This document shows, in pieces, positions 10,802 to 32,395 of a DNA stretch of 43,626 nucleotides. The position numbers were made by a program, and so were the translations under genes. Source of the stretch: Acutalibacteraceae bacterium (lineage in GTDB: Bacteria > Bacillota > Clostridia > Oscillospirales > Acutalibacteraceae); assembly GCA_045601505.1 (NCBI GenBank), contig JAZRZS010000029.1, forward strand, positions 1 to 43,626. The letters run 5' to 3'. The notes beneath the pieces were generated by a model, which ran no database searches, was not told the DNA's origin, and was given only the letters and a program-made list of their open reading frames with translations. Position 1 is the stretch's first letter. Every line of letters begins with the position of its first letter.

Positions 10802-12253
10802 GTGAACCAATTAAATGATAAACGCAAAAGTTATGACACATGGGAAGAGGCCTTTAAAGGCCTCGCTCCCGTTGTTCGTCAACAGTCGGTCAGAATAGCG
10901 GCATACACACAGGCACTCTATGTTCAAGCCTGTGAAAGCGGTTTCGGTGCAAAGTTTGCAGGCGGTGCCGAGCGTATGCAGTCTTCTTATGCCAACCTGG
11001 CCTTTAAGTGCGGTATGTATCATCAGTTGGGTAAGGCGCTTGTCCCTCATGAGTATCAAATCCTTGAGGTTGGCTTTTCAGATGAGGAAACAGCCCTTTA
11101 CCGTAAGTATACAACCGAGGGCCGTCGCCTTGTTGCCGAACTTCAGGAAAAGGGTTCGGGCAATAAAAATAAGAATGTTCAGGGCGAACCTTTCACCGAT
11201 AAAATACCATGGCTTATGATTCGTGAGAGTTGTCAGCAGCATATGGAAAGGTATGATGGCACAGGATACCCTGACGGACGTGCAGATAAGGCAATCAGCC
11301 CTATTGCTCAGATAGTGGGCATGGCAAAGATGTTTGATCATCTTTCTGCAGAAATAAAATCGGAAAATCCGTTTTCTGAAGCCTGCGAATCCATACTTGA
11401 TGAGAGCGGAAAGGCTTTTTCGCCTGAACTTTGTGAGGTCTTTAAGACCGCTAAAAGTAAGATACACAATATATATAATAAATATATTCATTACACAATG
11501 AAGTTGCCGCGCACGATTCCTCTTGTTAAAAAAGCAAAGGGAAGACCTATGGGTCTTGCTTACCGCTCTTTGACAGGCGGCGATTTCACCACAGTTGCTT
11601 ACGAGGCTATCCCATGGTTTAAAACCAAGGAAGGAGAGAGGGCAGACATTGCCGAAATAGGACCGCGTCTTGCAAGGACGGGACTTACTGTGGATATGAC
11701 CTTCTATCTTCTTTATGAAGCGGCGGATACACTGCTTCGTATTCAAAACTGTGAACTTGATTTAAAGTATTTGTTAGTAAATATGTTGCCCGAGTTTTAC
11801 AGTAGGCAAAGTTACTTAAAGCGTTTTGAGGAACTGTTCTCAAATCAGCCGGTAGATCGTTCCCGTCTGTTGCTCACAATTCCCGAAAAGTTTGTGCTTG
11901 GCGCAAACAAAGGCGAAACCGAGATAATTTGCCGTTACCTTAAAAACGGAATTGCTTTGGTGCTTGACGATTATCATCCCGAATCCATATCTCCTGCAAA
12001 ACTTAAAGAGTTGGGCTTTTCTCATGTGCGTTTATCACCTGAGACAAGCGCTAAACCGCTGTATGCTTCTGATGTAAGGGCGCTTATGGACCGTAATATC
12101 ACGGTGTTTGCCTCCTGTGCAGAACACCAGCACCTTAAATGGCTTGCCGAAAGCGGCGTTTACGGCGTAAGCAGTCAACTTAACGGAGAAACTGTGGATG
12201 AGGATACCGTTATTCGTGACACCTTGTTGCGAGAGCGAGGCACTACGGTATGA
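10802..12253 (+). CDS. Degenerate HD-GYP domain + degenerate EAL-like domain protein (putative c-di-GMP sensor)
   Basis: GTG start lies 6 nt after GAGGGA. HD-GYP boxes are HQLGK (the HD box has become HQ) and HMERYDGTGYPDG (HHE has become HME). The EAL-like half has AYEAIPW (EAL-R changed to EAI-P), LLLTIPE (in place of EitE), LDDYHPE (in place of DDFGTG) and RLS (in place of KiD). Confidence 0.75.
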   Translation: MNQLNDKRKSYDTWEEAFKGLAPVVRQQSVRIAAYTQALYVQACESGFGAKFAGGAERMQSSYANLAFKCGMYHQLGKALVPHEYQILEVGFSDEETALYRKYTTEGRRLVAELQEKGSGNKNKNVQGEPFTDKIPWLMIRESCQQHMERYDGTGYPDGRADKAISPIAQIVGMAKMFDHLSAEIKSENPFSEACESILDESGKAFSPELCEVFKTAKSKIHNIYNKYIHYTMKLPRTIPLVKKAKGRPMGLAYRSLTGGDFTTVAYEAIPWFKTKEGERADIAEIGPRLARTGLTVDMTFYLLYEAADTLLRIQNCELDLKYLLVNMLPEFYSRQSYLKRFEELFSNQPVDRSRLLLTIPEKFVLGANKGETEIICRYLKNGIALVLDDYHPESISPAKLKELGFSHVRLSPETSAKPLYASDVRALMDRNITVFASCAEHQHLKWLAESGVYGVSSQLNGETVDEDTVIRDTLLRERGTTV

Positions 12254-13248
12254 GTATGGACAACTACCGTGAAAATGATAAACAGCGAAGGCTGATAAAT
12301 AAAAAGCGCGCGGGAATTGTACTTACCGAAACCGAGGTAAAGGAAATTATTGAAGGCCGCAAAAAATTGCGTGCTGATATGAAGGCGCAGGGTGCTTACA
12401 CTAAACGTGAGTTTGAACTTACAGCATCAAGCCTTGGCTTTTATTTCGACAAGGGCCGATTTTTAGGTCTTTGGCTTTGGTTATGGCATAAGGGCGTTAT
12501 TTGGGGCGTTCTCGGTGCGGCGATTGCAACATTGCTTGCGATGTATGGATTTTCCATTGTTACCGAAATGAGAGGACACTTCACAATAAACTTGGCAGAT
12601 GAATTAGTTAACCAAGGTTTTGAACTTAGCAATACTGCGGATTTCGCAAACCCAACTGCCAGAATATACGGCACACCTGTTGAGGATGCTCCGTGTATTT
12701 CAATTGCGGATTTGCCTGATAATCTTGATGCGATTGACGGTTCGCATAACGGACGAAACTATTTCGCGCATACCTTTTATCTTTCAAAACGCGGTGAAGG
12801 CACGGTGGATTACGCTTTCGAATTATCCGTTAATTCTGAAAGTCTTAACGCTTCAGATGCTATTTGGGTTATGCTTTTTGAGGATTCGGTTCCCACAATA
12901 TTTGCTAAAGCAAACAAAGAAACTGGCGAAGCAGAATGTCTTCCTGCAAAGGATAATGACCGTGTAGGTTATGTTAAGATTCCCTTTGCTGAGGACGGGC
13001 TTGGCTCTGAACAGTTTGAGGTTGTCCGTGAAACACCAACCAGAAAATACTTTCGTCTCATACCGAAGAGATTTAAAGACAGTAAAGTTGTGACCGATAG
13101 TATTGTGGCAGATGTTGCACAGGACGAAGTACATAAATATACCGTTGTTATCTGGCTTGAGGGTGATGATCCTGATTGTACAGATGACATTATAGGCGGT
13201 CATATCGGTATGCAGATGGATTTTGAACTTCTGGATATCAGCGAATAA
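12250..13248 (+). CDS. Family member 'D': bitopic membrane protein with a ~75-aa cytoplasmic N-terminus, a TM helix and the extracellular core of the unnamed WLEGxDxDC family
   Basis: Its ATG overlaps the stop of the upstream gene (ATGA at 12250-12253). TM is VIWGVLGAAIATLLAMYGFSIV, followed by TEMRGHFTINL. The C-terminal motif is VVIWLEGDDPDCTDD...GMQMDFEL. Confidence 0.8.
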   Translation: MSMDNYRENDKQRRLINKKRAGIVLTETEVKEIIEGRKKLRADMKAQGAYTKREFELTASSLGFYFDKGRFLGLWLWLWHKGVIWGVLGAAIATLLAMYGFSIVTEMRGHFTINLADELVNQGFELSNTADFANPTARIYGTPVEDAPCISIADLPDNLDAIDGSHNGRNYFAHTFYLSKRGEGTVDYAFELSVNSESLNASDAIWVMLFEDSVPTIFAKANKETGEAECLPAKDNDRVGYVKIPFAEDGLGSEQFEVVRETPTRKYFRLIPKRFKDSKVVTDSIVADVAQDEVHKYTVVIWLEGDDPDCTDDIIGGHIGMQMDFELLDISE

Positions 13249-13298: not shown

Positions 13299-13362
13299 CA
13301 GAATATAATTTCTCCGACGGGAGATAAAGACGTAATTTTTTAAAAAAGTGAGGTAAATTGTG

Positions 13363-15402
13363 ATGAACAAACAACAGATGAATGAAATGTCTTCCCTTCG
13401 CAATAAGCTGTTTGCTGCGGTTGCAATGCTTTTAGTGGCTTGTATCATGGCGGTATCGTCCACTTATGCATGGTTCACATTGTCAACAGCTCCCGAAATT
13501 AAGGGAATCACAACCACCGTTGGTGCCAACGGTAACCTTGAAATTGCATTAGGTACTTGGGATACCGTTTACGGTGTTGCAACTCCCGGTTCTGCTGAAG
13601 GCGATTCAATGGATAAGGATGGCCAGTTAGTTACTGCTGCCAATATTACCTGGGGTAACCTTATCGATCTTATGGATGAGTCCTACGGGTTAGGCGCTAT
13701 TAAGCTTTATCCTTCACGCCTTAATGCTACGAAGGCTGACGGCGCTTTGGGTATCTTAACACAGGCATTCTCACCCTTGGCATTCCCAAAATATGGTACA
13801 GACGGTCGTATTACTGAATTGGATAGAAACACTATGATCGGTAAGTACAACCAGACTGCTGGAGGCTTTATGGCTTTGGGTACTCCTAACTATGCAGGTG
13901 TAAATGCTATCGGTTCTGCTTCTTCTATGACAGAGCGTGAATTTGCAGTTCGTAATAACAAGAACGCTATCGAAAGCAACAGAGTTAAGGCTAAGGCTGA
14001 GGCACAGGGCGCAATTAACCTTTACTCAGGTGACCTTGCTGCTATTGCAATCGATAACATGAGCAGTGGTGACGATGCAGTTATTTCTGCTGATGATGTT
14101 GCAGTTCTTAAAAATTTGATTGTTAAGCTTGAAGCTTCTAACGCTGCAATCGGCGATTCTATCAAGTCGGCCATTATGCTTTTCTTAGCAAGCAGCAGCA
14201 GCACTCTTACTGATACTGCTTGGAAAGATGCTGTTTCTGTTCTTTCCAGCAAATCTCTTGAAGAAACTGTAGCCCATTTGCAGTCTCTTACAGGTCTTGC
14301 AACTCTTCCCACCGCTGTAAGTGATCTCGTTGGCAAGTATACTTCAATTAAATCAGATCTTGCTGCTGCAAAGGCTGTATTACCCGAAAGCGGCGATACC
14401 ACTTGGGGCGTAGTTGGCGATGCAGTTGGTACATTGCTTAACGCAAGCGGCATCTTAATCTGCAACGAAACTATTGCTGACATCAAAAATACTAAGGATA
14501 GTCCTGAGGCTGACACTGCATTCAAGAGAGTTACTGCTGCTGTTCTTAGCGGCGGTCTTGAATTCCAGTTCAAGTCTGATAGTGGTATCTTTGCTGATAT
14601 CGCTGAAATGACTGGTGAATACGGTGCTACCATCAACTTCCCTGAAGGTCTTGAAGTTGAAGGAATTCCGCTTGGCGGTCTTAAGAAGCCTGTTACCGTT
14701 GAAAGCGGTAGCCTTAACACCGCAACCGGTGAATTGGGTCTTATGAAGCAGGGTGTTGACGGTTTGGCAGCTCCCGGTGCCGACCCCAATGCTGAAAAGG
14801 CTCTTACCGATACATACGGTTACACAATTGATATGCTCTTCCGTACAAACGCAAGTGATTCATATCTTCAGTTGCAGACTGCTGCAGCAAACCGCATCTA
14901 TGCAGGTAATAACAACGAAGCTATCATGGGCGGCGGCAGCAATATGACCTTTACTATTGAAGGCGAATACACTAAGGCTAAGATCGATGGCATTGCTGCC
15001 GGTATCCGTGTTGTATTCTATGAAACAACCGAGGCAGCAGGCGGCGCAGCAACCATTTTAGGTGTTGCTACATTAGATACCGATAACGGTGTTGTTTCGA
15101 GTAACAACTATATGCTCGACCTTAATCTTATGGATTATTCAATCACCAACGGCATTATGCAAATTGGCGATGTTATGGTTGATGATACAGATACTGTTGC
15201 TAACGAAGCAGTAGCACTCAAGGCTTTGTCTGCTAATACTATAACAAAGGTTACCGCTCTTGTATATCTTGACGGCGATGTTATTGATAACGGTGATATC
15301 GGTGTTGCAGGATTACTTAACGGTAAACTCAATCTCCAGTTCTCTTCAAGCGCTACATTAACTCCTATGAACAATAACAGTTTAATGAACGCTGCCAACT
15401 AA
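13363..15402 (+). CDS. Family member 'E' (679 aa): SipW-type signal peptide protein, long form with a helical insert
   Basis: ATG 13363 lies 8 nt after AGTGAGGT. Signal is LRNKLFAAVAMLLVACIMAVSSTYA/WFTLSTAPEIKGITTTVGANGNLEIALG. Shared motifs are YGTDGRI, GYTIDMLFRTNASDSYLQLQ and ALVYLDGDVIDNGD...GKLNLQFSS. Confidence 0.85.
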   Translation: MNKQQMNEMSSLRNKLFAAVAMLLVACIMAVSSTYAWFTLSTAPEIKGITTTVGANGNLEIALGTWDTVYGVATPGSAEGDSMDKDGQLVTAANITWGNLIDLMDESYGLGAIKLYPSRLNATKADGALGILTQAFSPLAFPKYGTDGRITELDRNTMIGKYNQTAGGFMALGTPNYAGVNAIGSASSMTEREFAVRNNKNAIESNRVKAKAEAQGAINLYSGDLAAIAIDNMSSGDDAVISADDVAVLKNLIVKLEASNAAIGDSIKSAIMLFLASSSSTLTDTAWKDAVSVLSSKSLEETVAHLQSLTGLATLPTAVSDLVGKYTSIKSDLAAAKAVLPESGDTTWGVVGDAVGTLLNASGILICNETIADIKNTKDSPEADTAFKRVTAAVLSGGLEFQFKSDSGIFADIAEMTGEYGATINFPEGLEVEGIPLGGLKKPVTVESGSLNTATGELGLMKQGVDGLAAPGADPNAEKALTDTYGYTIDMLFRTNASDSYLQLQTAAANRIYAGNNNEAIMGGGSNMTFTIEGEYTKAKIDGIAAGIRVVFYETTEAAGGAATILGVATLDTDNGVVSSNNYMLDLNLMDYSITNGIMQIGDVMVDDTDTVANEAVALKALSANTITKVTALVYLDGDVIDNGDIGVAGLLNGKLNLQFSSSATLTPMNNNSLMNAAN

Positions 15403-15430
15403 TTATTATCAGTTTTCAGGTTAATACTGT

Positions 15431-15475
15431 GCGTCTGCCTGCGGTTTCCCGCAGGCAGACGCCAGATGGTGTTTT
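15431..15475 (+). terminator. Strong GC-rich hairpin after gene E (terminator or attenuator)
   Basis: Perfect 14-bp stem GCGTCTGCCTGCGG / CCGCAGGCAGACGC with a TTTC loop, followed by CAGATGGTGTTTTCGG, which is only a weak T-tract. Confidence 0.55.
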
Positions 15476-15621
15476 CGGCAGGATTGTGGTTAGAGTGTAT
15501 ACTGCTGCCATTGGATTCTGATAAGTTATTTGTTTAAAAATTCCATATTTAGTTTGAAAATAAAGCGTTATCCGTTAATTCGGGCATCGCTATATCGTTG
15601 CTTTTAGGGAGGATGATTATT

Positions 15622-16629
15622 TTGCGCCTGTTTTGGCACGAGCAACAAGACCAAAAGAGGAAAAAGAGAACTCTTATTCTGCTTTTGATTGCATTGTTGT
15701 TGATTTTACTTCCGCTATGCACTGTGGCTACTTATACGTGGTTGGGTATCAGCAAAACCCCTAAAGTCAGCGATATGGAGATGACAATTAACTGCGACCC
15801 AGGACTGCAACTTGCCTGGGATATTGAGGCAGAAGATGACGAGTGGAAGCAACAACTCGATTTTACCGATGCAGTAGGTACAGATACGTTGCTCACCCCT
15901 GTTACCTGGTCGGACAAGGAGAAGAGTTTTTACACCGCAAAGTTCGGGGCAGACGGCAGAATAGTGGATATAGGCGTTCGTCTGTCGGACGAAAAAGACT
16001 CTAACGGCAGAGACGGACACTACGTTAAATTCACCTTTTATGGAAGAACCGAACAGGAGGTTGAGGTTTCGCTTTCGCCTGCGGTATCAGCCAGTGATGA
16101 CGGCAGTAAAAGTGCAGGAACCTATCTTTTGGGAACACCCCTATGGCAAGAAAATTCTAAAGCTCATAAAGATGGCGGTCAGGGTGCTCAATTTGCAACC
16201 CGCGTGGGTTTTATTATTTCAAAAATCAATAACGAGGGAGTAGTTACCTCGCAAAAACCGATGCTGATATATGAGCCAAATTGCGACAGGCATATAGACG
16301 GCAGTTCTGGATATGTTGACACTCCGTCTATTGACGGCTTTGAAGATTTAGTCGGTGCGGACAGATTGATAAAGCAAACCACTTCCCACTGGGAAGAGGG
16401 ATATCCTGTTGAGCGGGATGTGATTATAAGAGATTTAGGTGTTTTTGAAGACGATGTTACACTGTTCCAACTTGATAATAATGAAAAGGTGAAGATTGAT
16501 GTTTACGTCTGGCTTGAAGGTATGGATGTTGACTGTGTGAACGTCTTGGGAACAGGAGCGCAATTCTTTGCTAATCTTCAGTTATCTGCTATTCCGGATA
16601 ATCAGTCGGGATTGGTGCCCATTCAGTAA
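15622..16629 (+). CDS. Family member 'F' (~335 aa): SipW-type signal peptide protein, short form
   Basis: TTG 15622 lies 9 nt after AGGGAGG. ATG 15613 abuts the RBS and TTG 15598 is the longest ORF start, so the start is uncertain. Signal is KRKKRTLILLLIALLLILLPLCTVATYTWLGISKTPKVSDMEMTIN. Motifs are FGADGRI, GHYVKFTFYGRTEQEVEVSL and VYVWLEGMDVDCVN...FFANLQLSA. Confidence 0.8.
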   Translation: MRLFWHEQQDQKRKKRTLILLLIALLLILLPLCTVATYTWLGISKTPKVSDMEMTINCDPGLQLAWDIEAEDDEWKQQLDFTDAVGTDTLLTPVTWSDKEKSFYTAKFGADGRIVDIGVRLSDEKDSNGRDGHYVKFTFYGRTEQEVEVSLSPAVSASDDGSKSAGTYLLGTPLWQENSKAHKDGGQGAQFATRVGFIISKINNEGVVTSQKPMLIYEPNCDRHIDGSSGYVDTPSIDGFEDLVGADRLIKQTTSHWEEGYPVERDVIIRDLGVFEDDVTLFQLDNNEKVKIDVYVWLEGMDVDCVNVLGTGAQFFANLQLSAIPDNQSGLVPIQ

Positions 16630-16725
16630 AAAACGCTGTGCGGTTTTTAATATAGTAATTCAATAGTATATTCTTGGGATTTTTAGTCTCAGGAGTTTGT
16701 ATTGGAATATAAAAGGAGAGGTTTT

Positions 16726-17535
16726 ATGAGCCAGAAAGAGAAAAACATCATTGCAACCCCTAAAACTGTACCCCAAACGGACGGTAGCACTGCAGTAGAA
16801 AGCAAGCCTGCCAAGAAAAACAAGGTGTTAAGCAGTATTATCAATGTTGTTTTGGTAATAGCGATTGTTTTGGCAATTATGGCAACCTATGTATCATACG
16901 TTTCTACATCAGGTAGCGGAGTTCCAAGTATTTTGGGTATGAGACTGTTTTCTATACGTACAGACTCAATGTATGATACCCTTATGCCAGGCGATTTAAT
17001 TATTGACACCGCGGTTAAAGACCCCGAGAGTCTCAAAAAGAATGACGTTATTACCTATTGGACCGTTATTGACGGCGAACGAGTTCTCAATACTCACCGT
17101 ATTGTTGAAATTTATGACGGTAACGGCTTCCTCATTTTTGCTACAAAGGGTGATAACAACAGCACAGTCGATACATTGACCGTTCACGAATCGGAAATTG
17201 TTGGTAAGTATTCCTTCAGAATTCCCGGTGTCGGTAAGGCTTTTGATTATTTGCAGACCAGCACAGGTTTCCTTATTGTTGTTGTTATTCCTGTGGTTAT
17301 ATTCCTGATTTATCAGTTGATTCAGTTCTTCCGCGTGCTCTTTGAGTATCAGAATGTTAAGAGCAGAATTCGTTTTGAAATGGAACGCGGACGTACAGAA
17401 GACCTCATTGAAGAGCAGAACCGCCGCGAAGAAGAACTTAAGCAGGCGGAACGTGAAAAAATAGAGGCAGAATTGCGCGAAAAGATTCGTGCTGAACTTA
17501 TGGCTGATTCCGAACAAAAAGAAGATAAAGAATAA
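16726..17535 (+). CDS. sipW: SipW-type (ER/archaeal-type, S26B) signal peptidase I with a C-terminal TM and charged coiled-coil tail
   Basis: ATG lies 4 nt after AAAGGAGAGG. Catalytic boxes are RTDSMYDTLMPGDLII, NTHRIVEI and ATKGDNN. A second TM is GFLIVVVIPVVIFLIYQLIQFF. The tail is EMERGRTEDLIEEQNRREEELKQAEREKIEAELREKIRAEL. Confidence 0.85.
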   Translation: MSQKEKNIIATPKTVPQTDGSTAVESKPAKKNKVLSSIINVVLVIAIVLAIMATYVSYVSTSGSGVPSILGMRLFSIRTDSMYDTLMPGDLIIDTAVKDPESLKKNDVITYWTVIDGERVLNTHRIVEIYDGNGFLIFATKGDNNSTVDTLTVHESEIVGKYSFRIPGVGKAFDYLQTSTGFLIVVVIPVVIFLIYQLIQFFRVLFEYQNVKSRIRFEMERGRTEDLIEEQNRREEELKQAEREKIEAELREKIRAELMADSEQKEDKE

Positions 17536-17543
17536 TTAATTAT

Positions 17544-17578
17544 ATGTCGAACGGCGTGTCTCACTGCCGTTTCGACAT
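17544..17578 (+). other. Stem-loop after sipW-1
   Basis: ATGTCGAACGGC / GCCGTTTCGACAT with one bulged T and a 10-nt loop, and no T-run. It separates the first module from the McrB-like pair. Confidence 0.35.
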
Positions 17579-17662
17579 ACTGCGCTTAAAAGACTATTTT
17601 GCAAATCAATAAGAATGTAAAATCACTTGTTTCAGGCGGATGGATTTTTGGAGGTGAACCTC

Positions 17663-19243
17663 TTGACAGATAATTTTTTCAGATATTTCTATGAGGATAT
17701 AGGACGTGTGTTCGGCGCTTTATGGGAGGTTTTCCTTTCAGTTTTCAACTTTTTTAACTATCTCATTAATTTTCCTATGCGAATGAAGTTAATAAAATCG
17801 CACTCCGCTGATTTTGGAATAGTTGATTGGATTTTGTTACTTGTCGCCCACATTATACTCATTGCTCTGACGGTGGCTTTAATCGTTGTGTTAGTAAAAA
17901 CTTTCCGCCACATTTTCAGATTCAGAGTGCCTGTCAAGAAGTATGATGAGGTGGTTCGTCAGGTTAAGCAACTTCAACGAGACCTGATAAGAGCAAATTA
18001 TGAAAAGGATAAACTTTTATCCCTTAAGGTTGCTGAACTCGGCATTAATCCTGATGAGGTATTGGTTGACTCGCTTTATGAAGAAAAGCAGGCAGAAGAA
18101 ATCGCAGAAGTCAACAGCAAGCGCAACACCAGAACCTCTCCTTGTGTAGATCCTGCTTCAAGCCGTTTTTTCAGACTTACCTCGGTGGATAATTATTATA
18201 AAACAGAATATGTTGTTCCAACCTATAATAATAACATTTCGTTAGAAGAATTTTGTGAACTTTTCAGAAAATTTTCTGCATCAAAACTCGGTCTTTATTA
18301 CGACCTTGACCTTATACGTTATTTTATTGCTTCACTCGGAACCTCAAGAATTGTAATATTGCAGGGTATTTCGGGTACCGGTAAAACCTCACTTGCGTAT
18401 GCTTTCGGTAAGTTTGTTAATAAAGATACCACTGTGGTTCCTGTTCAACCTTCGTGGCGCGAACGTACCGAACTTTACGGTTACTTTAACGAATTTACAA
18501 AAATTTATACCGAGACCGACTTTTTACGTGCGGTATATGAAGCAAACTATTACCGCGACCCGCACATTCTTATCCTTGATGAGATGAACATTGCACGTGT
18601 TGAGTATTACTTTGCGGAAATTTTGTCTATCCTCGAAATGCCGCTTGAGAGCGAGTGGAATATCGATATTGTTACTGCTATGTGGGATAATGACCCGTGT
18701 CTTATCGAAAACGGTAAGCTTGCTATCAGTAATAATATCTGGTTTATCGGTACTATCAACAACGACGACTCGACCTTTGCCGTTGCCGATAAGGTTTATG
18801 ACCGTGCAATTCCTATCGACCTTGACAGCCGCGCAGACAAGTTCGAGTGCGAAGAAACCGACTCGATATTCGTAAGCACCGACCATCTGAACGCTTTATT
18901 TGCCGAAGCAAAAGAAAAATATCCGATTTCACAGGATATACTCGATAAAATTGATGAGGTAAATAATTATCTTATTGCAAATTTCCGTCTGGCATTCGGT
19001 AACCGTATTATGAAGCAACTTTGTGATTTCGTGCCTTGCCTTATCGCTTGTGGCGGAACCGAAATTGAAGCGGTTGACTTTATGATTGCCAAAAAGGTTT
19101 TGCGTAAGTTTGAGTCTCTGAGCCTTGGATTTATGAGGGATGAATTAACGCGATTCAATTCATATCTTGACAAGGTGTTCGGCAAAAACAGTATGAAGAT
19201 TTGTAAAGAATATATTGACAGTTTAAAGAAAAATGCTAACTAA
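17663..19243 (+). CDS. Membrane-anchored McrB-like AAA+ (GTPase-type) NTPase
   Basis: TTG 17663 lies 8 nt after GGAGG; the track start is 17627. The N-terminus has hydrophobic segments (VFGALWEVFLSVFNFFNYLINF and IVDWILLLVAHIILIALTVALIVVLV) and a short coiled coil. The McrB-type core has Walker A GISGTGKTS, then VQPSWRERTELYGYF, Walker B ILILDEMNIARVEYYFAEILSILE, and WFIGTINNDDSTFAVADKVYDRA. Confidence 0.8.
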   Translation: MTDNFFRYFYEDIGRVFGALWEVFLSVFNFFNYLINFPMRMKLIKSHSADFGIVDWILLLVAHIILIALTVALIVVLVKTFRHIFRFRVPVKKYDEVVRQVKQLQRDLIRANYEKDKLLSLKVAELGINPDEVLVDSLYEEKQAEEIAEVNSKRNTRTSPCVDPASSRFFRLTSVDNYYKTEYVVPTYNNNISLEEFCELFRKFSASKLGLYYDLDLIRYFIASLGTSRIVILQGISGTGKTSLAYAFGKFVNKDTTVVPVQPSWRERTELYGYFNEFTKIYTETDFLRAVYEANYYRDPHILILDEMNIARVEYYFAEILSILEMPLESEWNIDIVTAMWDNDPCLIENGKLAISNNIWFIGTINNDDSTFAVADKVYDRAIPIDLDSRADKFECEETDSIFVSTDHLNALFAEAKEKYPISQDILDKIDEVNNYLIANFRLAFGNRIMKQLCDFVPCLIACGGTEIEAVDFMIAKKVLRKFESLSLGFMRDELTRFNSYLDKVFGKNSMKICKEYIDSLKKNAN

Positions 19244-19272
19244 ATAATTATTCTATAGAAAGGGTGGGGGTT

Positions 19273-21057
19273 ATGTCTGAAACGTCTGCTTCTAAAAGCA
19301 AGAATACAAAGGCTAAAAAAACTGCAGTTATTGATGCTGTATATCAGAAATATACCAAGGGCGTTATCCGCACATTAGCCAGCACCGATTTCTATGAATT
19401 TTTTATGGATATGATAGAGAGGGCTGAAAATGAATTTCAGTTCTCAAACCGCAGATGCGAAAAGGTTATAGATCCTAAATGGGTTGACGCGGTGGATAAT
19501 TCGCTTGTGGGATTTCAGAATATTATTTCAAATCCCCGTAACATCATCAAGGAAGAAGAACTGATTGTAAACGTAGCTCACGCCAAAAAGGGCGGTCAGG
19601 ATGTTGTACGTCATCTCGCGCAACATGGAAACTTTGTATCTTCTTTTGATTATGAAACAAGGGAAGTCAAACCTAATAAACTGATGCAGAAACTCAGAGA
19701 GGATTCCAACGAGCTGTACGAAAACCGCTTTGTTTACACGATTTTGGAATCTGCCCATCACTTTGTGAAAATTCGTTATGAAGCACTCTTTAACGCTATG
19801 GGTGATGAGTTTGGTGCAAAACTTAAAATGCAGTCCGACCTTGACTGCGCCAGCGAAACCATTCACTTTGATATGTTTATGCATATCAAGGATAAGCAAA
19901 GTGTTCTTGAGATTGACGAAAAATGCGGCGATATGCTGTCAAGCGTTGCCAGACTTTACCGTGTGCTCACTATGTTTATGGCGTCCCCATTTGCTCAGCA
20001 AATGTCACGTCTGCCGCGTGTTAAGGGTGCAATCACCAAAACAAACGTGCTTAAAAAACACCCTGATTATAAGTTGATTGTGAAACTCTGGGAGTTTCTT
20101 AAGCAGTATGATGCTGTGGGTTACGCCCTTAAAATTACCGAACAAAATCCTCAGATTACCGAAAGTTTTCAAAAGGATTTGTTCCATAATATTATGTATC
20201 AGTACATTGTGCTTAAAGGTTATCTTGAATCCGAACAGGACCGTCAGGTACCTGTGCCTTTAAAGCAGAGAAAGCGTACCTTGAAGCCAAAGTTTATCCG
20301 TGAGATTATCGAAGAACTCACTGAAGACTATGACCTTCCTGATATTGAAGTCAGAAAGGTATTAATAGAGCAGCTTACTAAGGAACAACTTATGCTTGAA
20401 GAGGCAGAGGAACGCCGCCGTTTAGTTGCTGAACAGGAGCGTCAGAGGAAAGAAGAGGAAGAAAGACTCCGCCTTGAAGCAGAAAAAGAAAAGGAACGTC
20501 TGCAAAAGGAAAAAGAGGCCGAACTCGAACGAATCAGACGTGAAAAAGAGGCAGAGGAAGAAAGACTTCGCGTCCAACGTCTTGAACAGGAGAATATTGA
20601 CCGTTACTGTGCTAATGTTTACGGTAAAGAAATTGAAAAACTCTTAAGGTCATTGCCACTTCAACTTGAACTTCGCAAAGAAGCGGAGGAAAAGGAAAAA
20701 ACGGTTACAAAGTCTGATTTTGAAAACGCGGTTGAAGAAATGGATGCCGCCGAAAAGCGCCGACTTTCACGTGCTGAACGTGAGCGCCGCCGTTTACAAG
20801 AAGAACGTGAGCGTCTTGAACTGGCAAGGCAGGAAGAAGAACGTTTGCGCTTGGAAAACGAGGCGCGTTTATTAGAACAACAGAGTATTGAAGATGCTGA
20901 GAACGTTAAGCATTTCCTTGTAATTCTTAGCGCTTTTGAAGACGAACTTGTGGTGCAGAAATATGAACGTCAGGTCTACGTTTCAAGAATCTGCGAAGAA
21001 AAAGAACGATTTGAACGCGAACGAAAAGAATGGCGTGCGCGCAAATCGGTTGGTTAA
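19273..21057 (+). CDS. McrC-N/DUF2357-like protein lacking a nuclease domain, with a ~230-aa Glu/Arg/Lys-rich coiled-coil C-terminus
   Basis: ATG 19273 follows GAAAGGG. The N-terminal ~330 aa carry ENRFVYTILESAHHFV and TNVLKKHPDYKLIVKLWEFLKQY, which resemble the McrC N-domain/DUF2357 signatures ENRf and d.rY...lW. The C-terminus is EERRRLVAEQERQRKEEEERLRLEAEKEKERLQKEKEAELERIRREKEAEEERLRVQRLEQE...RRLQEERERLELARQEEERLRLENE. I saw no PD-(D/E)xK motif. Confidence 0.65.
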   Translation: MSETSASKSKNTKAKKTAVIDAVYQKYTKGVIRTLASTDFYEFFMDMIERAENEFQFSNRRCEKVIDPKWVDAVDNSLVGFQNIISNPRNIIKEEELIVNVAHAKKGGQDVVRHLAQHGNFVSSFDYETREVKPNKLMQKLREDSNELYENRFVYTILESAHHFVKIRYEALFNAMGDEFGAKLKMQSDLDCASETIHFDMFMHIKDKQSVLEIDEKCGDMLSSVARLYRVLTMFMASPFAQQMSRLPRVKGAITKTNVLKKHPDYKLIVKLWEFLKQYDAVGYALKITEQNPQITESFQKDLFHNIMYQYIVLKGYLESEQDRQVPVPLKQRKRTLKPKFIREIIEELTEDYDLPDIEVRKVLIEQLTKEQLMLEEAEERRRLVAEQERQRKEEEERLRLEAEKEKERLQKEKEAELERIRREKEAEEERLRVQRLEQENIDRYCANVYGKEIEKLLRSLPLQLELRKEAEEKEKTVTKSDFENAVEEMDAAEKRRLSRAERERRRLQEERERLELARQEEERLRLENEARLLEQQSIEDAENVKHFLVILSAFEDELVVQKYERQVYVSRICEEKERFERERKEWRARKSVG

Positions 21058-21132: not shown

Positions 21133-22491
21133 ATGAAAAACTTACTTTTAAAGTTAATTACAATTGGAATGTTCATTGTGCTTACATTGGTAATAGTGGT
21201 TGCTTCTTCGTATGCTTGGATGAGTATGTCTACTTCGCCTACAATGTCAGGCTTGCAGATTAAAATCGGCGGAAGCAATACCATTTTGATTGCACCTGAT
21301 ATCACCAAAACGGTGGAAGGGAATATTATTCATTATCCGGGTGAATTTTCCGCTTCAATGAATTTTTCCAAACAAAATAACTATGCTTATCTGCAAAATC
21401 TGGTTGATTTATCGCCCGTTTCCACTGCAGACGGTATAAATTGGTATTTCCCCGCATATTACTCATCTTCCGAAGAAAATTCCGCAAATGACGGAACACT
21501 TCGTGAGATTTCGGACTTTTTGCTGGACGATACAATGTTGTATGCAAATTTAGAAGAACTTCCTGCAGATGATTCGGTTAACGGTTGCTATGCCGCCATA
21601 GATTTTTGGGTGGTTTCGCCTGCAAACTGCAATTTGCGCGTTTCGGTTGGGGACGGTGACGGCGGAAGTTACCTTATTAATCTCCCTCAACCTATAGATG
21701 ACGAAAACGGTAGTTATAAACTGGATATGAGCAATAAACTGTTGGCTTCCTGTGCGCGTGTAGGCTTTCTTGCAAATACCCACACGGTTAAGGATTTGTC
21801 TATAAATAATTACATTAACAGTCCGAAATATAACACTCATTACCGTTCCTTGAGGGGTATTTATCAGGAAAAGGGCGGGGAGAAAAATTATCATCCCGCT
21901 GAATTCACAATATATGAGCCTAATGCCAATTATCATCATGAGGATGGGGCGTATACTTTATCGAGAGACGGCAAGAATTACCGCCTTTGCGAAAACGGCA
22001 GTTATGTTGTGACAAAATCTATTGGAAATGTTGACGGTGTAGCACAACTTGTGGATGTGTCAGGCCGTACTACAGTTCAGACATCGTCTGACTGGAGTTT
22101 GATTAATGAAAACGATTATCACATTGAGCAGATTTTTCAGGCATATTTAGCAGGTGTTCAGTCTCCTGAGCTTGATATATTGGCTGACGGGTTCTATAGA
22201 CGTTATTTAGGCTATCAGTGCAATACATATCTGAATAAGGGCTCATTTATTAAAAATACTGAAAATTTAATCCGTGCCGCTGATGGTGACGGTGTGGTGG
22301 AACCCGATATATTTAATGCGCTTAATACCCACGGCGCAACCGATGACATTGTTATCGTGGGTCTTGAAAAGAATATTCCTCAGCGTATCAGGATGTTTGT
22401 CTGGATAGAGGGACAGGACATTGATTGTGCAAAGGTCGGCAGCACAGGCGGACTTATGCTTAATCTTGAATTGGCGGGTAGCGCAGAATAA
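21133..22491 (+). CDS. Family member 'I' (452 aa): SipW-type signal peptide protein, short form
   Basis: Signal is KLITIGMFIVLTLVIVVASSYAWMSMSTSPTMSGLQIKIGGSN. Motifs are PVSTADGINWYFP, CYAAIDFWVVSPANCNLRVSV and MFVWIEGQDIDCAKVGSTGGLMLNLELAG. Confidence 0.8.
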   Translation: MKNLLLKLITIGMFIVLTLVIVVASSYAWMSMSTSPTMSGLQIKIGGSNTILIAPDITKTVEGNIIHYPGEFSASMNFSKQNNYAYLQNLVDLSPVSTADGINWYFPAYYSSSEENSANDGTLREISDFLLDDTMLYANLEELPADDSVNGCYAAIDFWVVSPANCNLRVSVGDGDGGSYLINLPQPIDDENGSYKLDMSNKLLASCARVGFLANTHTVKDLSINNYINSPKYNTHYRSLRGIYQEKGGEKNYHPAEFTIYEPNANYHHEDGAYTLSRDGKNYRLCENGSYVVTKSIGNVDGVAQLVDVSGRTTVQTSSDWSLINENDYHIEQIFQAYLAGVQSPELDILADGFYRRYLGYQCNTYLNKGSFIKNTENLIRAADGDGVVEPDIFNALNTHGATDDIVIVGLEKNIPQRIRMFVWIEGQDIDCAKVGSTGGLMLNLELAGSAE

Positions 22492-22523: not shown

Positions 22524-23318
22524 GTGAAAACGGAAGATGGAAATAAAACCGAATTCAAACTACGGTTGGCTTCTGGATTTACGACGCTGTTATTAATTGT
22601 GGCTATTGTATGTTGTCTTTTTTTTACACTGCAAAGCCTTTCTAAAGGGTATGTTTCCTTTGGCGGCACAAGTATTTTCCGTGTTGTGACGGGAAGTATG
22701 GAACCGCAAATTCCTGTTGGTGCACTGTTAGTATCCCAAAAAGAAGATATAGAAAAAATTTCGGTTGATGATATAGTTTGCTTCCGCTCCAAAGAAGCGG
22801 GGACGCGAAGCATTATTATAACCCATCGCGTTGTCGGTATTTTTACCGCCCCCAATGGCAAACCTTTATTGCAGACAAAGGGGGATGCAAATCTCAGCGT
22901 GGATGCGGAATATGTTTCCGAAAAAAATTTGATAGGCCGTGTAACATGGCATTCGGGGGTTGGAAGTAAAGTGGCGACAATTATTAGTTTTTTAACCAGC
23001 GATTTCGGATTTTTAGCATGTATTATTCTGCCTGTAATCCTTATTGCAATTATCGTATTCCGCAATGCTATCAAGAGTGTGAAAAATGCGATTATTGTTG
23101 CTCAAAAACAGTTGGAAGAACAGAATTCGCAAAGCAAAATCAAGGCAGAAATTTCTAAAGAAGAATACGAGGAAATGTACTTAAGAATTGCCAAAGAAGT
23201 GAGAGAGGAGTTGGAGCAGGATGCTGAAAAATCAGTGGAACAAGATGAAAAAAATGCTTTTGAATCGTGTGACACAGTTGAAGCAAATGCAACTGCTTCA
23301 ACAGATGAAGAAACTTAA
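22524..23318 (+). CDS. sipW: SipW-type signal peptidase I, second copy, with a C-terminal TM and charged tail
   Basis: GTG start follows GAAGGTG. Boxes are VTGSMEPQIPVGALLV, ITHRVVGI and QTKGDAN. The second TM is FGFLACIILPVILIAIIVF. The tail is AQKQLEEQNSQSKIKAEISKEEYEEMYLRIAKEVREELEQDAEKS. Confidence 0.85.
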   Translation: MKTEDGNKTEFKLRLASGFTTLLLIVAIVCCLFFTLQSLSKGYVSFGGTSIFRVVTGSMEPQIPVGALLVSQKEDIEKISVDDIVCFRSKEAGTRSIIITHRVVGIFTAPNGKPLLQTKGDANLSVDAEYVSEKNLIGRVTWHSGVGSKVATIISFLTSDFGFLACIILPVILIAIIVFRNAIKSVKNAIIVAQKQLEEQNSQSKIKAEISKEEYEEMYLRIAKEVREELEQDAEKSVEQDEKNAFESCDTVEANATASTDEET

Positions 23319-23394
23319 AAATCTTATTTTAAACGGTACAACCGAAGAAATAAACAAGGAAAATGAAACAATAGAACAGCACCTGAGGCGAGGT

Positions 23395-25260
23395 ATGATT
23401 CAAAAGGGCGGTCTGGCGGCGGTGGCTGTAGTTTTGGCAGTTGCAATGGTGTTTGCTATGACTGCCGCGTGGTATAGCAACGTTATTCAGACCACAGGTC
23501 TTATCTTCAATGTTTCCGAATGGGGACTTGAATCGGGTGTGAATATTGAAAACGAACTGAAAAACGCCGCACCCGGTGAGAGCGGTAAGATTGCACTTGA
23601 AGTGCACAATTCGAGTGACGGTATAATTGATGTTAACCTTAATATTGATAAGGTTGGATTATATAATGATATCGGCGATATGCGTAAGCGTTTGTACTTT
23701 TATATTGATGATACTGCTCAGCGAAACGATGAAACTGTAAACCGCGTGTATCTTAACAGCGAGGAAGAATATTCATATACAGTTCTGGCAAAACAAAAAC
23801 TCATTTTAGGCGAACAGGGTAATAATTTTCCGCTTATGTGGGAATGGGTTTATGATGTTTTGGGGTACTATTTTTATGGCACTGTAACCACCTCTTCTAC
23901 AGCAGAAATTGAAGAATATCTGCGCCCTGTTATATATGATTACGATGCTGCAACATTTTCGAACGGTCAACTTGCAACGGTTGACGGAAGCACAACAGCA
24001 ACAAACTTTATAGCTGAGATTACCGCGAATGACGGGTATGCAGGCACAACTTCAAGAACAGTAAAGAGTTCTGACGGCAAAATTTATTATCCTGTTGAGA
24101 TTGACGAAAACGGCAACGGCGTGTGGATTTATTGCTGCACACTTGGCGAAATCCAGTATGAAAACGTTGTGGATACAAATCTCGGTAATGCTGAGCAGGA
24201 TTTGCGCCGCTTCAGAACTAATCTTAATGTTCTGGCACAGCAGAAGAAACTGACTGTGGCAACGGTTAATTCTGTTGATGAGTTTAAAACCGCATTAGCA
24301 GACGATACACACAATATGGTTGTTTTATCAAATGATATTGTTTTGTCTGAAAAGTTAACAATGGCGCCAGGCAACGAAAAAATTGTAGACCTTGCAACAC
24401 ATACCATTTCAACCGATTTAACAGGGACCCTTGTTGATGCCAAAGAAGGTGCTTCGTTTACACTTATGAACGGTGCAATAAAGGGTAATGATTCTCATTC
24501 CGGAACACTCTTTTCTATTGTGGGTAGCGATGTGGCATTAAGCGGTATGACTATTACCGATGTTGCGGAGGTTGCCAGAATTGCTGATAACGAATCTTCA
24601 AATAATGACACAAAAATGAACATAGTTGATTGCACCATTAATTGTTCGACTTTTGGTATATCTATAAAAGGTAACGGTCCTATAAGTCAGGGTGCAACGT
24701 ATCTTAACATAGAAAACAGCGAGATTATAAGCACCGGCTCATTTGCGCTTGTTGGTAACGGAAGCGTGCTTAAAAACGGTAACTGGGGAACTAATATCTG
24801 TGTTAGCGGAAGTACTCTTAAGGCTAAACACAGTGGTATATATCATCCCCAGCCGGATAGTGTTCTTTTAGTTAAGGATAGCATTATCGAAGGAATGACA
24901 CCGTTTGTTGTAAAGGGTGGCACAGTAACTATTGAAGATACCGAAATCAAAGCAACAAATGATGAAGGAACACAGGAAGAAATACAAGAGCCTTCACTTG
25001 GTGTTAGCGGATATGCAGACACCGGTGCTGCACTTTATGTTGAAACAGGCTATAATTACCTTTGCGATGTTACTTTAATCGGTACGAATAAGTTGACCAG
25101 TTATTACAGTGAAGCAATTTTGCTTTATATGAAGGATAACGAAAATTATAGTATTAAAGTTTCGGGCGGCGATTACAGCCACGATGTTTCTGAATTCCTG
25201 GCAGACGGTTATGTTTGCAAAAAGAATAATGAAAACCGATATGAGGTAACCGCGAAGTGA
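23395..25260 (+). CDS. TasA/camelysin-like N-terminal domain fused to a beta-helix domain (~621 aa)
   Basis: ATG 23395 lies 6 nt after GAGG. ATG 23305, overlapping the sipW-2 stop, is an alternative. Signal is GGLAAVAVVLAVAMVFAMTAAWYSNVIQTTGLIFNVSEW. NAAPGESGKIALEVHNSSDGIIDVNLNI parallels NLKPGD...FENNGSLAI in TasA. The C-terminal half has repetitive beta-helix-like turns and ends GGDYSHDVSEFLADGY. Confidence 0.75.
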   Translation: MIQKGGLAAVAVVLAVAMVFAMTAAWYSNVIQTTGLIFNVSEWGLESGVNIENELKNAAPGESGKIALEVHNSSDGIIDVNLNIDKVGLYNDIGDMRKRLYFYIDDTAQRNDETVNRVYLNSEEEYSYTVLAKQKLILGEQGNNFPLMWEWVYDVLGYYFYGTVTTSSTAEIEEYLRPVIYDYDAATFSNGQLATVDGSTTATNFIAEITANDGYAGTTSRTVKSSDGKIYYPVEIDENGNGVWIYCCTLGEIQYENVVDTNLGNAEQDLRRFRTNLNVLAQQKKLTVATVNSVDEFKTALADDTHNMVVLSNDIVLSEKLTMAPGNEKIVDLATHTISTDLTGTLVDAKEGASFTLMNGAIKGNDSHSGTLFSIVGSDVALSGMTITDVAEVARIADNESSNNDTKMNIVDCTINCSTFGISIKGNGPISQGATYLNIENSEIISTGSFALVGNGSVLKNGNWGTNICVSGSTLKAKHSGIYHPQPDSVLLVKDSIIEGMTPFVVKGGTVTIEDTEIKATNDEGTQEEIQEPSLGVSGYADTGAALYVETGYNYLCDVTLIGTNKLTSYYSEAILLYMKDNENYSIKVSGGDYSHDVSEFLADGYVCKKNNENRYEVTAK

Positions 25261-25276
25261 TTTAAGGAGGCAGGCT

Positions 25277-25792
25277 ATGCAGTTTAAGTGCAAAAAAATA
25301 AGTTTGATATGCCTGCTTGCACTGTTGGTTGTGGTTATTTTTAGTGTGGGCACCGCTTATGCGAGATACAAAACTTCAATTAACCAGACTATAATTTTTG
25401 AGACAAAACTAATAGATGATTCGGGCAAAATTGTTATCAGCTCGGCAGATGGTTGGGTTGAAGGAAATAACAATCTTACCCTTGATTTCGATCTTTCGGG
25501 CGGCGATGCAAAGTCGGGCAGAAAGGCATATCTCCGCCTTACTGCAACCGAAAATTTGGATACATCAGCAACGGTGACCCTGAAGGTTGACGGGGTTGAG
25601 TATCAAGGTGTGCCTTATAGTGTTGAAAACGGCGAACTGCTGCATTTTCAGATGGGTAACGGCACAGAATACCGCTTTATGAGCGAAAATGATGAAATTT
25701 ATTGGAAGCTTTCCGATAAAAAGAGTATGAAACTTACAGTTAGCGGTAAGGGCAATAAATCCCTTTTGCGTTTGGTGGCAAAGGAAAAATAA
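25277..25792 (+). CDS. Small SipW-type signal peptide protein (171 aa), candidate fibre subunit
   Basis: RBS is TAAGGAGG. Signal is KKISLICLLALLVVVIFSVGTAYARYKTSINQTIIFE, which compares with GGT[WYF]A.F.D in TasA/CalY. The mature part is about 140 aa and beta-rich. Confidence 0.7.
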   Translation: MQFKCKKISLICLLALLVVVIFSVGTAYARYKTSINQTIIFETKLIDDSGKIVISSADGWVEGNNNLTLDFDLSGGDAKSGRKAYLRLTATENLDTSATVTLKVDGVEYQGVPYSVENGELLHFQMGNGTEYRFMSENDEIYWKLSDKKSMKLTVSGKGNKSLLRLVAKEK

Positions 25793-25804
25793 GGAGGAAA
25801 CGCA

Positions 25805-27034
25805 GTGACTGCTTTGGGCAAAATTAATCGTATAATGCTGTATGTGGCTGTTGATGTACTTATCTTAGCGGTTATTGCCTTCAGTTGCTTAGGGTTCGCT
25901 CAGGCACGATATAACAACGGCGACATTTCTTCCTATGTGTACGGCACAGAGAAGGTTGATGTCTGCACAATGAGTGAAGAAGGCAAAGTATTTGACTTTG
26001 GTATATGGCAGTTAGGTCAGGGTGACAGTTTTTCTTCCACCGTGATTATTGAAAGTCGGGATGCTTTGAGAGGAACACTCAGGTTTTCACTTGATGAGGA
26101 TACGGCAGATGTTAACGATATTGCAATTCAGATAGACGGTGTCTTTTCATCAAGCCACGGGGAGTACACAGTTAACGAAGAAGACGGTCGTTTAGAATTG
26201 CCGTTCAGCGTTTTCATTTCTCCGACAAACCGAGTGGCTACCGCCTATCTTGATGTTGAGTGGATTGAAAACGGCAGTTCAGAAGTGGCCATGTCCTCAA
26301 GGTATCTTATGGCACTGAATGCCTTTTCAATTGAAGACAAAAACGCGGTTACAGTTGACCAGAACAATACAAAGTTTTTAACCAATGATTTATTGAACGT
26401 GGCAGTTGAAGTTACCGACACGGCAGAGGGTGTCATATTGGCGCCAGGTTCAATAATAACAAATAAATTTTCGGCGGGTATGAAATATTATACCGACCAA
26501 TATCCGCAGGGTGTTATCCTGTTAAAAAGCAGTGCATTGTATTTTTCAGACCTGCAAAACGGAAAACTTAACACGGTTTTAGACCTTGGCGATTATACGG
26601 CTGAGAGCCCCATTAGTTTAACTGCAGGGTTTTCTGAATCAAAATATGTTGTGACCTCGCAAACACCGCTTTCGGTTACAAAAACTTTAACGGTATCAGT
26701 CGAGAAAAAAACCGTTTTATCCCACACAAAGCCGCTTACTGTAACCTTGGAAGAAGCGGCAGCCCTGAGCGACAATGAATGGAATGTGGACGGTTCTGAA
26801 AAATCGGAACTTGAATGGCAGATTGAAAGACTTGTGAACGGTAAATATGTTGCGGTGGAAACAAGTAAAAATCTTACAGTATTGAAAAAACAAACCAATA
26901 ACACGGGCGAGTTGGTTTTATCTACCCCCACGGGCGACCAACCAGCAGGTACGTATCGTATTAAGTTTACACAAAAGTATAACGGATACACAGTAGGCAC
27001 AGAATTTTCGTGGTTCTTTATAGATTATCGTTGA
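25805..27034 (+). CDS. SipW-type signal peptide protein (409 aa)
   Basis: GTG start follows AAGGAGGA. Signal is IMLYVAVDVLILAVIAFSCLGFAQARYNNGDISSYVYG. The body is beta-rich and ends GTYRIKFTQKYNGYTVGTEFSWFFIDYR. Confidence 0.7.
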   Translation: MTALGKINRIMLYVAVDVLILAVIAFSCLGFAQARYNNGDISSYVYGTEKVDVCTMSEEGKVFDFGIWQLGQGDSFSSTVIIESRDALRGTLRFSLDEDTADVNDIAIQIDGVFSSSHGEYTVNEEDGRLELPFSVFISPTNRVATAYLDVEWIENGSSEVAMSSRYLMALNAFSIEDKNAVTVDQNNTKFLTNDLLNVAVEVTDTAEGVILAPGSIITNKFSAGMKYYTDQYPQGVILLKSSALYFSDLQNGKLNTVLDLGDYTAESPISLTAGFSESKYVVTSQTPLSVTKTLTVSVEKKTVLSHTKPLTVTLEEAAALSDNEWNVDGSEKSELEWQIERLVNGKYVAVETSKNLTVLKKQTNNTGELVLSTPTGDQPAGTYRIKFTQKYNGYTVGTEFSWFFIDYR

Positions 27035-27052
27035 TTTTATTAGGAGAAAAAA

Positions 27053-32379: not shown

Positions 32380-32395
32380 AACTAAGGAGAGGCTT

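Follow-up and report, generated by a model that had tools for sequence, protein, structure and literature searches.

Why should two genes that look like relatives of a restriction enzyme stand in the middle of an operon for signal peptidases and secreted proteins? McrBC is the textbook GTP-driven restriction motor. The question is raised by a stretch of 43,626 nucleotides (nt) from an Acutalibacteraceae bacterium (GenBank assembly GCA_045601505.1, contig JAZRZS010000029.1; hereafter the window), which is chromosomal, uniform in composition and part of a Clostridia genome that encodes dockerins, and in which a gene pair of McrB and McrC type at 17663-21057 lies between two genes for SipW-type signal peptidases. 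A preliminary description of the window had offered two explanations: either the pair is a McrBC-derived motor co-opted for the surrounding fibre system, or it is an independent, nuclease-free defence module which inserted between duplicated fibre modules. In this work we have compared the pair with its relatives and with known McrBC systems. We consider it rather probable that it is a McrBC derivative of the CoCoPALM type, an architecture described below, which forms an integral component of a SipW-dependent surface-fibre operon on the cytoplasmic face, and that it serves neither restriction nor defence. We argue for an integral role in the SipW system from the synteny of the pair, the flanks of divergent loci, gene fusions, the pattern of conservation, the absence of relatives from phages and plasmids, and a hairpin that is not conserved. 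The mechanism, a motor or gating role, we infer from genomic context.

The McrB-like NTPase and its McrC-like partner

The features described here for 10802-31681 of the window lie on the + strand. The first gene of the pair was listed as an open reading frame (ORF) at 17627-19243. Its start was placed at the TTG at 17663, since over 100 homologues have their start at the corresponding position, and a GGAGG site lies 7 nt upstream. The gene (17663-19243), called from the ORF, the homologue alignment, this ribosome-binding site and a Pfam AAA_5 match, encodes a protein of 526 amino acids (aa), hereafter the AAA protein. It contains the motifs GISGTGKTS, ILILDEMNIARVEYYFAEILSILE and WFIGTINNDDSTFAVADKVYDRA, in which the preliminary description had recognized a McrB-type AAA+ core. 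This was borne out: the AAA_5 match (E 1.2e-5) exceeds the cut-off, the sole significant relatives of solved structure among the PDB sequences are E. coli McrB chains (E 3e-4), and hhalign aligned the family profile with E. coli McrB at 96% probability (E 3e-9). The Walker A motif GISGTGKTS (18365-18391) is invariant in two family alignments (A2 and A3), and the Walker B motif with its McrB-type extension, LDEMNIARVEYY (18575-18610), aligns to IDEINRANLS of McrB. The signature motif NNDD (18758-18769), of the form N-x-D-(D/E), is the NxD variant of the NxxD of McrB; INNDDS aligns with MNTADRS, the NNDD standing opposite NTAD. The wider-family consensus after the sensor-1 asparagine is N-x-D-(D/E)-S-T, with NKDD, NRDE, NHDE and NKDE as variants at the same place, and Walker A, Walker B, N-x-D and the DRA arginine do not vary among relatives whose identity to the alignment's reference sequence is 29-39%. 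Judged by its sequence, the AAA protein belongs to the NxD clade of McrB-family NTPases and retains every catalytic motif, and from the conserved catalytic residues we predict that it binds GTP and that McrC stimulates its hydrolysis.

The N-terminus of the protein consists, in this order, of an aromatic amphipathic segment, a transmembrane helix, a basic stretch, a coiled-coil-like segment and a variable acidic linker. One or two hydrophobic helices and a short coiled coil, not a DNA-binding domain, had been proposed for this region. The hydropathy scan found a single strong transmembrane helix (aa 54-80, 17822-17902), which is kept in family alignment A2, and the N-terminal 200 aa matched no DNA-binding family in Pfam. 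After the helix come the basic stretch KTFRHIFRFRVPVKK and then LQRDLIRANYEKDKLL, a conserved segment; from the basic residues after the helix we conclude that the part of the protein beyond it is cytoplasmic. Within the short juxtamembrane, coiled-coil-like segment (17936-18046, with VRQVKQLQRDLIRANYEKDKLLSLKVAELG), the block RANYEKD is invariant in 22 homologues. Other relatives of the AAA core (P0246, P0249, P0253, P0284, P0313, P0325, P0351) bear different membrane N-termini, in some a signal peptide, a large Pro/Thr-rich extracellular domain and a transmembrane helix, in others multi-pass membrane domains. From this diversity it seems that membrane tethering of the NxD-clade McrB GTPases takes several forms.

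The partner gene (19273-21057) begins with the ATG at 19273, 29 nt past the stop codon of the AAA gene and in the same direction, and encodes 594 aa. The partner contains ENRFVYTIL and HPDYKLIVKLWEFL, which had been read as signatures of the McrC N-domain, DUF2357. Its N-terminal domain comprises aa 1-345 (19273-20307), of which aa ~32-170 are DUF2357/McrC-N-like and include the invariant YENRF; Y149, E150, N151, F153 and T257 are invariant. Pfam DUF2357 was matched by 10 of 24 close homologues and by 33 of 44 distant ones (best E 1.4e-12). Several of these matches exceed the gathering score, spanning aa ~32-170 up to the YENRF helix, and the window partner is 75-77% identical to homologues which score. 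Membership in DUF2357 is thus predicted for the partner at the level of its family, as the preliminary description had supposed. The second part of the partner, a Glu/Arg/Lys-rich, all-helical region at aa 358-593 (20344-21051), is predicted to be a coiled coil or a single-alpha-helix spacer. AlphaFold2 (AF2) gave helices at 358-479 and 486-593 and no strands, with a predicted local distance difference test score (pLDDT) of 70-90. This region of ~235 aa varies in length among homologues and is absent from forms of ~370 aa, which stop after the N-domain. Neither the window partner nor the 44 distant homologues matched any nuclease family in Pfam, and the description of the partner as nuclease-less with a coiled-coil C-terminus therefore holds. 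We also observed that a segment between the N-domain and the variable coil, LKPKFIREIIEELTEDYDLPDVEIRKVLIEELTKEQLM-EEA-ERRRLV (20280-20420, aa ~337-385), is nearly invariant and within the clade of the window far more conserved than the remaining arm; it is likely, going by this conservation, to be an interaction site.

What kind of McrBC relative is this? Bell, Makarova, Wolf and Koonin (eLife 2024, PMC11090510) named an architecture CoCoPALM in a single paragraph and deferred its analysis to a forthcoming publication; our literature search found no later paper using this name. In their account, the CoCoPALM GTPase belongs to the NxD clade and is fused to an FtsB-homologous domain with transmembrane and coiled-coil helices, it is associated with proteins of the signal-peptidase family, and coiled coils are usually present on both the McrB and the McrC homologues (PMC11090510). 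The McrC N-domain (DUF2357) binds the McrB hexamer and stimulates GTP hydrolysis (PMC11090510). The window pair likewise has a GTPase of the NxD clade, a transmembrane and coiled-coil N-terminus, a coiled-coil McrC homologue and an association with signal peptidases, and the juxtamembrane segment of the AAA protein corresponds to their FtsB-like transmembrane and coiled-coil part; the reported FtsB homology, however, was not reproduced with Pfam here. With all other descriptors present, the pair is by its sequence features of CoCoPALM type. The earlier expectation that either explanation would be unusual has to be tempered, as an architecture of this kind is already named and will not surprise readers of the 2024 survey. 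As far as the main text of that paper goes, the McrC-SipW fusions, the core of EAL protein, anchor-like protein and YAWF-bearing cargo, and the conservation ranking, all described below, may go beyond it, and so may the co-variation of coil and tail and the SipW-less relatives beside putative cell-wall genes. The fusions and the conserved core offer concrete handles for experiments.

The E. coli McrBC (PDB 6HZ4, 6UT6, 7VSR) shares with the window pair the Walker A motif, a DExNxA-type Walker B, the asparagine/aspartate signature, and an adjacent, co-directional partner gene with a McrC N-domain family. In the window, however, a transmembrane anchor takes the place of the N-terminal DNA-binding domain, the partner is without a PD-(D/E)xK nuclease, and the signature is NxD and not NxxD; the pair is also chromosomal, vertically inherited and embedded in an operon, not beside type I restriction-modification genes. 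With neither DNA reader nor nuclease, a canonical McrBC type IV restriction enzyme is ruled out. The CoCoNuTs (CnuB/CnuC, PMC11090510) and PADLOC candidate PDC-M26 are closer, with an NxD clade GTPase, coiled coils and a McrC homologue often without an active nuclease. In CoCoNuTs the coiled-coil N-termini are long and cytoplasmic, and a further nuclease (HEPN and others) is always linked to the system, whereas the window cassette has a transmembrane anchor, no nuclease anywhere, and SipW and cargo proteins as neighbours. The AAA core matched PDC-M26A, a candidate on which our literature search found no paper, at E 4.8e-41, the best stretch covering 118 aa of the 724-position profile. As the partner had no PADLOC match at E<=1 and only the AAA core matches, a complete PDC-M26 system is ruled out as well.

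Conservation of the cassette and its link to SipW

Is the pair a part of the operon or a guest in it? The pair is flanked by SipW copy 1 (16702-17535), which has a C-terminal transmembrane helix and a charged cytoplasmic tail of ~70 aa, and by SipW copy 2 (22524-23318), also with a charged C-terminal tail. They matched NCBIfam TIGR02228 with 84.3 and 76.8 bits, respectively (cut-off 51.85), and copy 1 matched the SipW model at E 6.7e-30; by these matches both are assigned to the archaeal/endoplasmic reticulum (ER)-type signal peptidases. When GTDB was scanned with one genome for each species, relatives were confirmed at 214 places, of which we analysed the best 80, all of them metagenome-assembled genomes of gut or rumen Clostridia with 65-82% identity. 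In these best 80 the order cargo-SipW-AAA-partner was invariant wherever the contig allows, and it held even in the few genomes in which the rest of the operon was rearranged; in every one of the 80 species the gene directly before the AAA gene was that of SipW copy 1. The pair was never found without the operon in this close clade. Its relatives are widespread, since besides the 214 GTDB places there are thousands of metagenome proteins, from abundant uncultured gut and rumen Clostridia, and no full-length relatives of the pair were found on phages or plasmids. Median identity among the close species was 68.5% for the AAA protein, 63% for SipW copy 1, 57% for the partner, 50% for the EAL-domain protein encoded upstream and 30-45% for the cargo. 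No other gene of the operon is as well conserved as the AAA gene, and the cargo genes evolve fast, a pattern that fits a machine whose exposed subunits change quickly.

A second scan, with a profile of distant relatives, gave 80 metagenome loci whose AAA proteins are 33-48% identical to one relative, which is itself 33% identical to the AAA protein of the window; gene calls in the fetched loci are ORF calls made in this analysis. The DUF2357 partner was directly downstream of the AAA gene in 72 of these 80 divergent loci, and SipW was in the flank of 74, typically in the order SipW-AAA-partner-SipW, the SipW downstream of the partner being conserved in most of them. The co-occurrence with sipW which the preliminary description proposed to survey thus amounts to 80 of 80 close loci where the contig allows and 74 of 80 divergent ones. 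With jackhmmer a conserved core emerged across the divergent loci: EAL protein, anchor-like protein, cargo paralogues, SipW, AAA, partner and SipW. Natural fusions of the partner with the downstream peptidase occur on three independent contigs, each of which carries a single ORF encoding DUF2357, a Glu/Arg/Lys-rich coil, a transmembrane helix and Peptidase_S26 (L141:11610-14576, L156:11594-14545, L151:1948-5118). These proteins are ~985-1057 aa long, with a Glu/Arg/Lys-rich region of ~350 aa, and in the one fusion scanned against Pfam, that of L141, DUF2357 and Peptidase_S26 were both above threshold. Taken together, the synteny in 80 species, the cassette in divergent loci and the three fusions give strong contextual support to the co-option of a McrBC derivative into the SipW/fibre system.

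The preliminary description also pointed to a likeness between the charged coils of the pair and the SipW tails. As a homology this did not stand, the likeness being compositional, but the cytoplasmic coupling which it was taken to suggest receives indirect support from the fusions and from the co-variation of coil and tail. Six of seven partners without a coil were paired with SipW tails of 9-15 aa, while all coil-bearing partners were paired with tails of at least 36 aa; partner coil length and SipW tail length correlate with a Spearman coefficient of 0.60 (n=52), a value that is not phylogenetically corrected and may reflect perhaps three independent clades. In one clade (L109:5095-6987, L144:8051-9994, L154:2951-4966, L160:7955-9985) the upstream SipW has a cytoplasmic C-terminal extension of ~400-470 aa, and a second, short SipW stands just before it. 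The idea that this extension is EAL-like was dropped because Pfam gave no support; the Pfam matches of the extended SipW of L109 and L160 are limited to the peptidase domain.

A stem-loop upstream of the pair and a gap of 75 nt downstream had been proposed as the boundaries of an inserted module. The stem-loop is real: an intergenic RNA hairpin between the first sipW and the AAA gene (17543-17579) has a fold z-score of -2.7. It has no T-run, however, and the terminator scan does not pick it up. In a 79%-identical relative (L001) it is missing, and the gap between sipW and the AAA gene is 11 nt. With a hairpin that lacks a T-run and is missing in relatives, these features are ruled out as module boundaries.

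Motor, switch, positioning factor or defence module

How could a GTPase of restriction type serve a signal peptidase? We picture the AAA protein as a membrane-tethered hexameric GTPase ring, which would be activated by its partner acting as a McrC-like plug, and which would be physically coupled to the peptidase through the helical arm of the partner and the charged cytoplasmic SipW tails. GTP hydrolysis would then drive or gate the processing, membrane extraction and polymerization of signal-anchored fibre subunits, possibly under the control of cyclic di-GMP (c-di-GMP), with the co-conserved EAL protein as mediator. An analogy is offered by type IV pili, where the prepilin peptidase works together with a PilB-type ATPase. 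Genes for signal-anchored subunits, for a dedicated peptidase and for a hexameric NTPase of the cytoplasm also occur together in these pili and in type II secretion (PilB-type ATPase and PilD), and there, too, a conserved machine is combined with fast-evolving subunits; the protein families are unrelated, however, and a PilC-like platform protein was not identified. The comparison is one of analogy only. Taken to its full extent, the SipW-McrB-McrC cassette could be the engine of an unrecognized class of Gram-positive fibre assembly, in which a GTPase ring strapped to the peptidase extracts the subunits and is tuned by c-di-GMP, and by the same joint reading it would be a functional counterpart, made from restriction-enzyme parts, to the motor of type IV pili. 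We put this forward tentatively, as an attractive but rather doubtful extension.

The closest systems on the peptidase side are SipW-TasA-TapA of B. subtilis and sipW-bsaABC of C. perfringens, in which an archaeal/ER-type signal peptidase is encoded together with polymerizing secreted substrates, and in which, as in the window, an aromatic A-x-F-like motif closes the N-terminal signals. Those operons have no NTPase, whereas the window operon has one, and the window differs further in its cargo, which has no detectable TasA/camelysin homology, in its two SipW copies with long charged tails and in its giant proteins. Fibres of the SipW/TasA type are thought to assemble without an energy source, and an NTPase wired to the peptidase would change this picture. 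If our interpretation is true, a defence machine without its DNA reader and nuclease, and anchored in the membrane, has been turned into cell-envelope machinery. The only experimentally studied precedent that we found for such a co-option of McrB to envelope functions is, by its abstract, PcdA of S. aureus (PMC10602043).

Could the pair be a regulatory switch and not a motor? As a checkpoint or timer, the membrane-bound GTPase and its McrC-like activator might permit or prevent cleavage by SipW, or determine where the peptidases sit, without mechanical work on the substrates, the input being perhaps c-di-GMP sensed through the EAL partner or the load of cargo. The co-conservation of the EAL protein and the known role of the McrC N-domain as a GTPase activator (PMC11090510) would fit such a switch, the SipW fusions accord with tethering or regulation as well as with the transmission of force, and an assembly motor may be unnecessary if SipW substrates behave like BsaA, which polymerizes spontaneously when expressed without its signal sequence (PMC11580942). 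However, McrB-type AAA+ hexamers are translocases or remodellers, mechanical work is suggested by an ATPase core which is extremely conserved throughout, pore-side motifs included, and a sensor domain was detected on neither protein. We therefore regard a pure switch as unlikely, though it deserves to be taken seriously, and within an assembly or gating module the motor is somewhat more likely.

Several observations weigh against an integral CoCoPALM-type component of a fibre operon. The window partner itself had no Pfam DUF2357 match at E<=1. Two AF2 models of the partner, one of the full length with 24 sequences and one of the N-domain with 30 more diverse sequences, had pLDDT values of 66-67 and predicted TM-scores of 0.43-0.48, which is mediocre to low confidence, and a Foldseek search of these models against the PDB found no McrC or other match at E<0.5. 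With models of this quality the Foldseek result is uninformative and probably should not be counted against McrC homology. An hhalign comparison of the partner profile with the single E. coli McrC sequence, a weak one-sequence template, gave no match; E. coli McrC is a member of the Pfam family McrBC and not of DUF2357. The search of the partner profile against PDB sequences with hmmsearch returned coiled-coil noise only. A Pfam search of nine AAA N-termini gave no match to the DivIC/FtsB family, and the CoCoNuT clade and PADLOC candidate PDC-M26A, which are closely related to the AAA core, are associated with defence. The four cargo proteins scanned matched neither Pfam nor NCBIfam families, including the TasA/camelysin and SipW-signal models, and because the cargo matches no recognized family the label "fibre" is itself inferred. 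The co-variation of coil and tail, uncorrected for phylogeny and resting on perhaps three independent clades, belongs here as well. Finally, two divergent loci (L162:6398-8997, L163:10001-12601) carry the AAA gene and a partner of ~365 aa with neither SipW nor cargo nearby. By eye, from the sequences only, the genes downstream of the pair in L162 resemble those of a penicillin-binding protein (PBP), MraY and FtsW, and those upstream RseP and CdsA.

Such neighbours raise the possibility that the pair is a positioning factor of the envelope or division site, whose FtsB-like N-terminus places fibre assembly at septa or poles. The FtsB homology of the transmembrane and coiled-coil part was reported by Bell et al. 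(PMC11090510), the SipW-less loci adjoin PBP/MraY/FtsW-like genes, and PcdA, as described in its abstract, is a McrB-family NTPase co-opted to a cell-biological role at the membrane or division site (PMC10602043). PcdA differs in having N-terminal EVE domains, in binding FtsZ and DivIVA and in having no signal-peptidase link, and its abstract and section list mention no McrC-like partner (PMC10602043). Moreover, the nine N-termini gave no DivIC/FtsB signal, the neighbours in the two SipW-less loci are named from sequence features only, and both the clade of the window and 74 of the 80 divergent loci associate with SipW and cargo, not with dcw genes. We find a positioning role improbable. A defence or abortive-infection module, nuclease-free and acting on the membrane, fares worse still and is in our view very improbable. 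It could appeal to the McrBC ancestry of the pair, to the PDC-M26A match of the AAA core, to the hairpin and the 75-nt gap in the window, and to the related NxD-clade CoCoNuTs, which are predicted defence systems (PMC11090510). Against it stand the invariant position in 80 species and the SipW association of the divergent loci, the covalent fusion of the partner to SipW in three of them, the partner without PADLOC match, the absence of full-length homologues from phages and plasmids, a hairpin that is not conserved, and a GC content of the pair that equals that of the neighbouring genes. Defence genes are typically patchy and fast-evolving, whereas here the AAA gene is the slowest-evolving gene of its operon and in the close clade is never met outside it; the inserted module of the preliminary description has therefore to be given up in favour of an integral component of the SipW operon.

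The other genes of the operon

The EAL-domain protein (10802-12253), with Pfam matches to HD_5 and EAL, is a c-di-GMP-related component of the operon. Even very divergent loci (L111:7776-8519, L139:2457-3287, L130:5292-6077) keep it in the corresponding place upstream of SipW-AAA-partner, and this co-conservation suggests c-di-GMP control. The EAL domains of divergent loci were confirmed at E 1e-26 to 1e-36. The region of the catalytic "EAL" glutamate appears altered in several of these proteins, for example to FLQSQTRL.

The next gene (12250-13248) encodes a signal-anchored member of the cargo superfamily which lacks the cleavage-type motif YAWF and has homologues in 46 of the 80 divergent loci, always upstream. 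It has a C-terminal motif W-(L/I)-EG-x-D-x-DC in common with the cargo encoded at 13360-15402, 15598-16629 and 21133-22491, and these features make it a candidate for the base of the fibre or for a membrane anchor that stays uncleaved. The predicted SipW substrates comprise two proteins of 680 and 343 aa (13360-16629), in which an N-terminal anchor is followed by a motif of the type (S/T)xYAW(F/L), and a protein of 452 aa (21133-22491) with SSYAWMSMSTSP. By eye, the (S/T)xYAWF-type motif after the anchor was also seen in genes that flank the pair in divergent loci.

The stretch 23221-31681 encodes additional proteins that are predicted to be secreted or to belong to the fibre; in it the start of the first ORF is uncertain. 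This ORF, of a 679-aa protein (23221-25260), overlaps the end of the second sipW by ~100 nt; as the hydrophobic anchor begins only at about residue 60, the true start is probably further downstream. The last of these genes (27053-31681) encodes a protein of 1542 aa, whose N-terminus is paralogous to that of the 680-aa cargo (SSFAWIVLSVSPEIKG…NGNLEIAL). Beyond it lie genes for a Lgt-like membrane protein (31705-32379) and a BspA-type leucine-rich-repeat protein (32330-34213), and the operon further encodes a protein of 2641 aa with a dockerin at its end (1633-9558). Together the dockerin, 1542-aa, Lgt-like and BspA-type proteins suggest an adhesive surface structure, and the giant proteins with dockerin and leucine-rich repeats suggest adhesion to a substrate or host.

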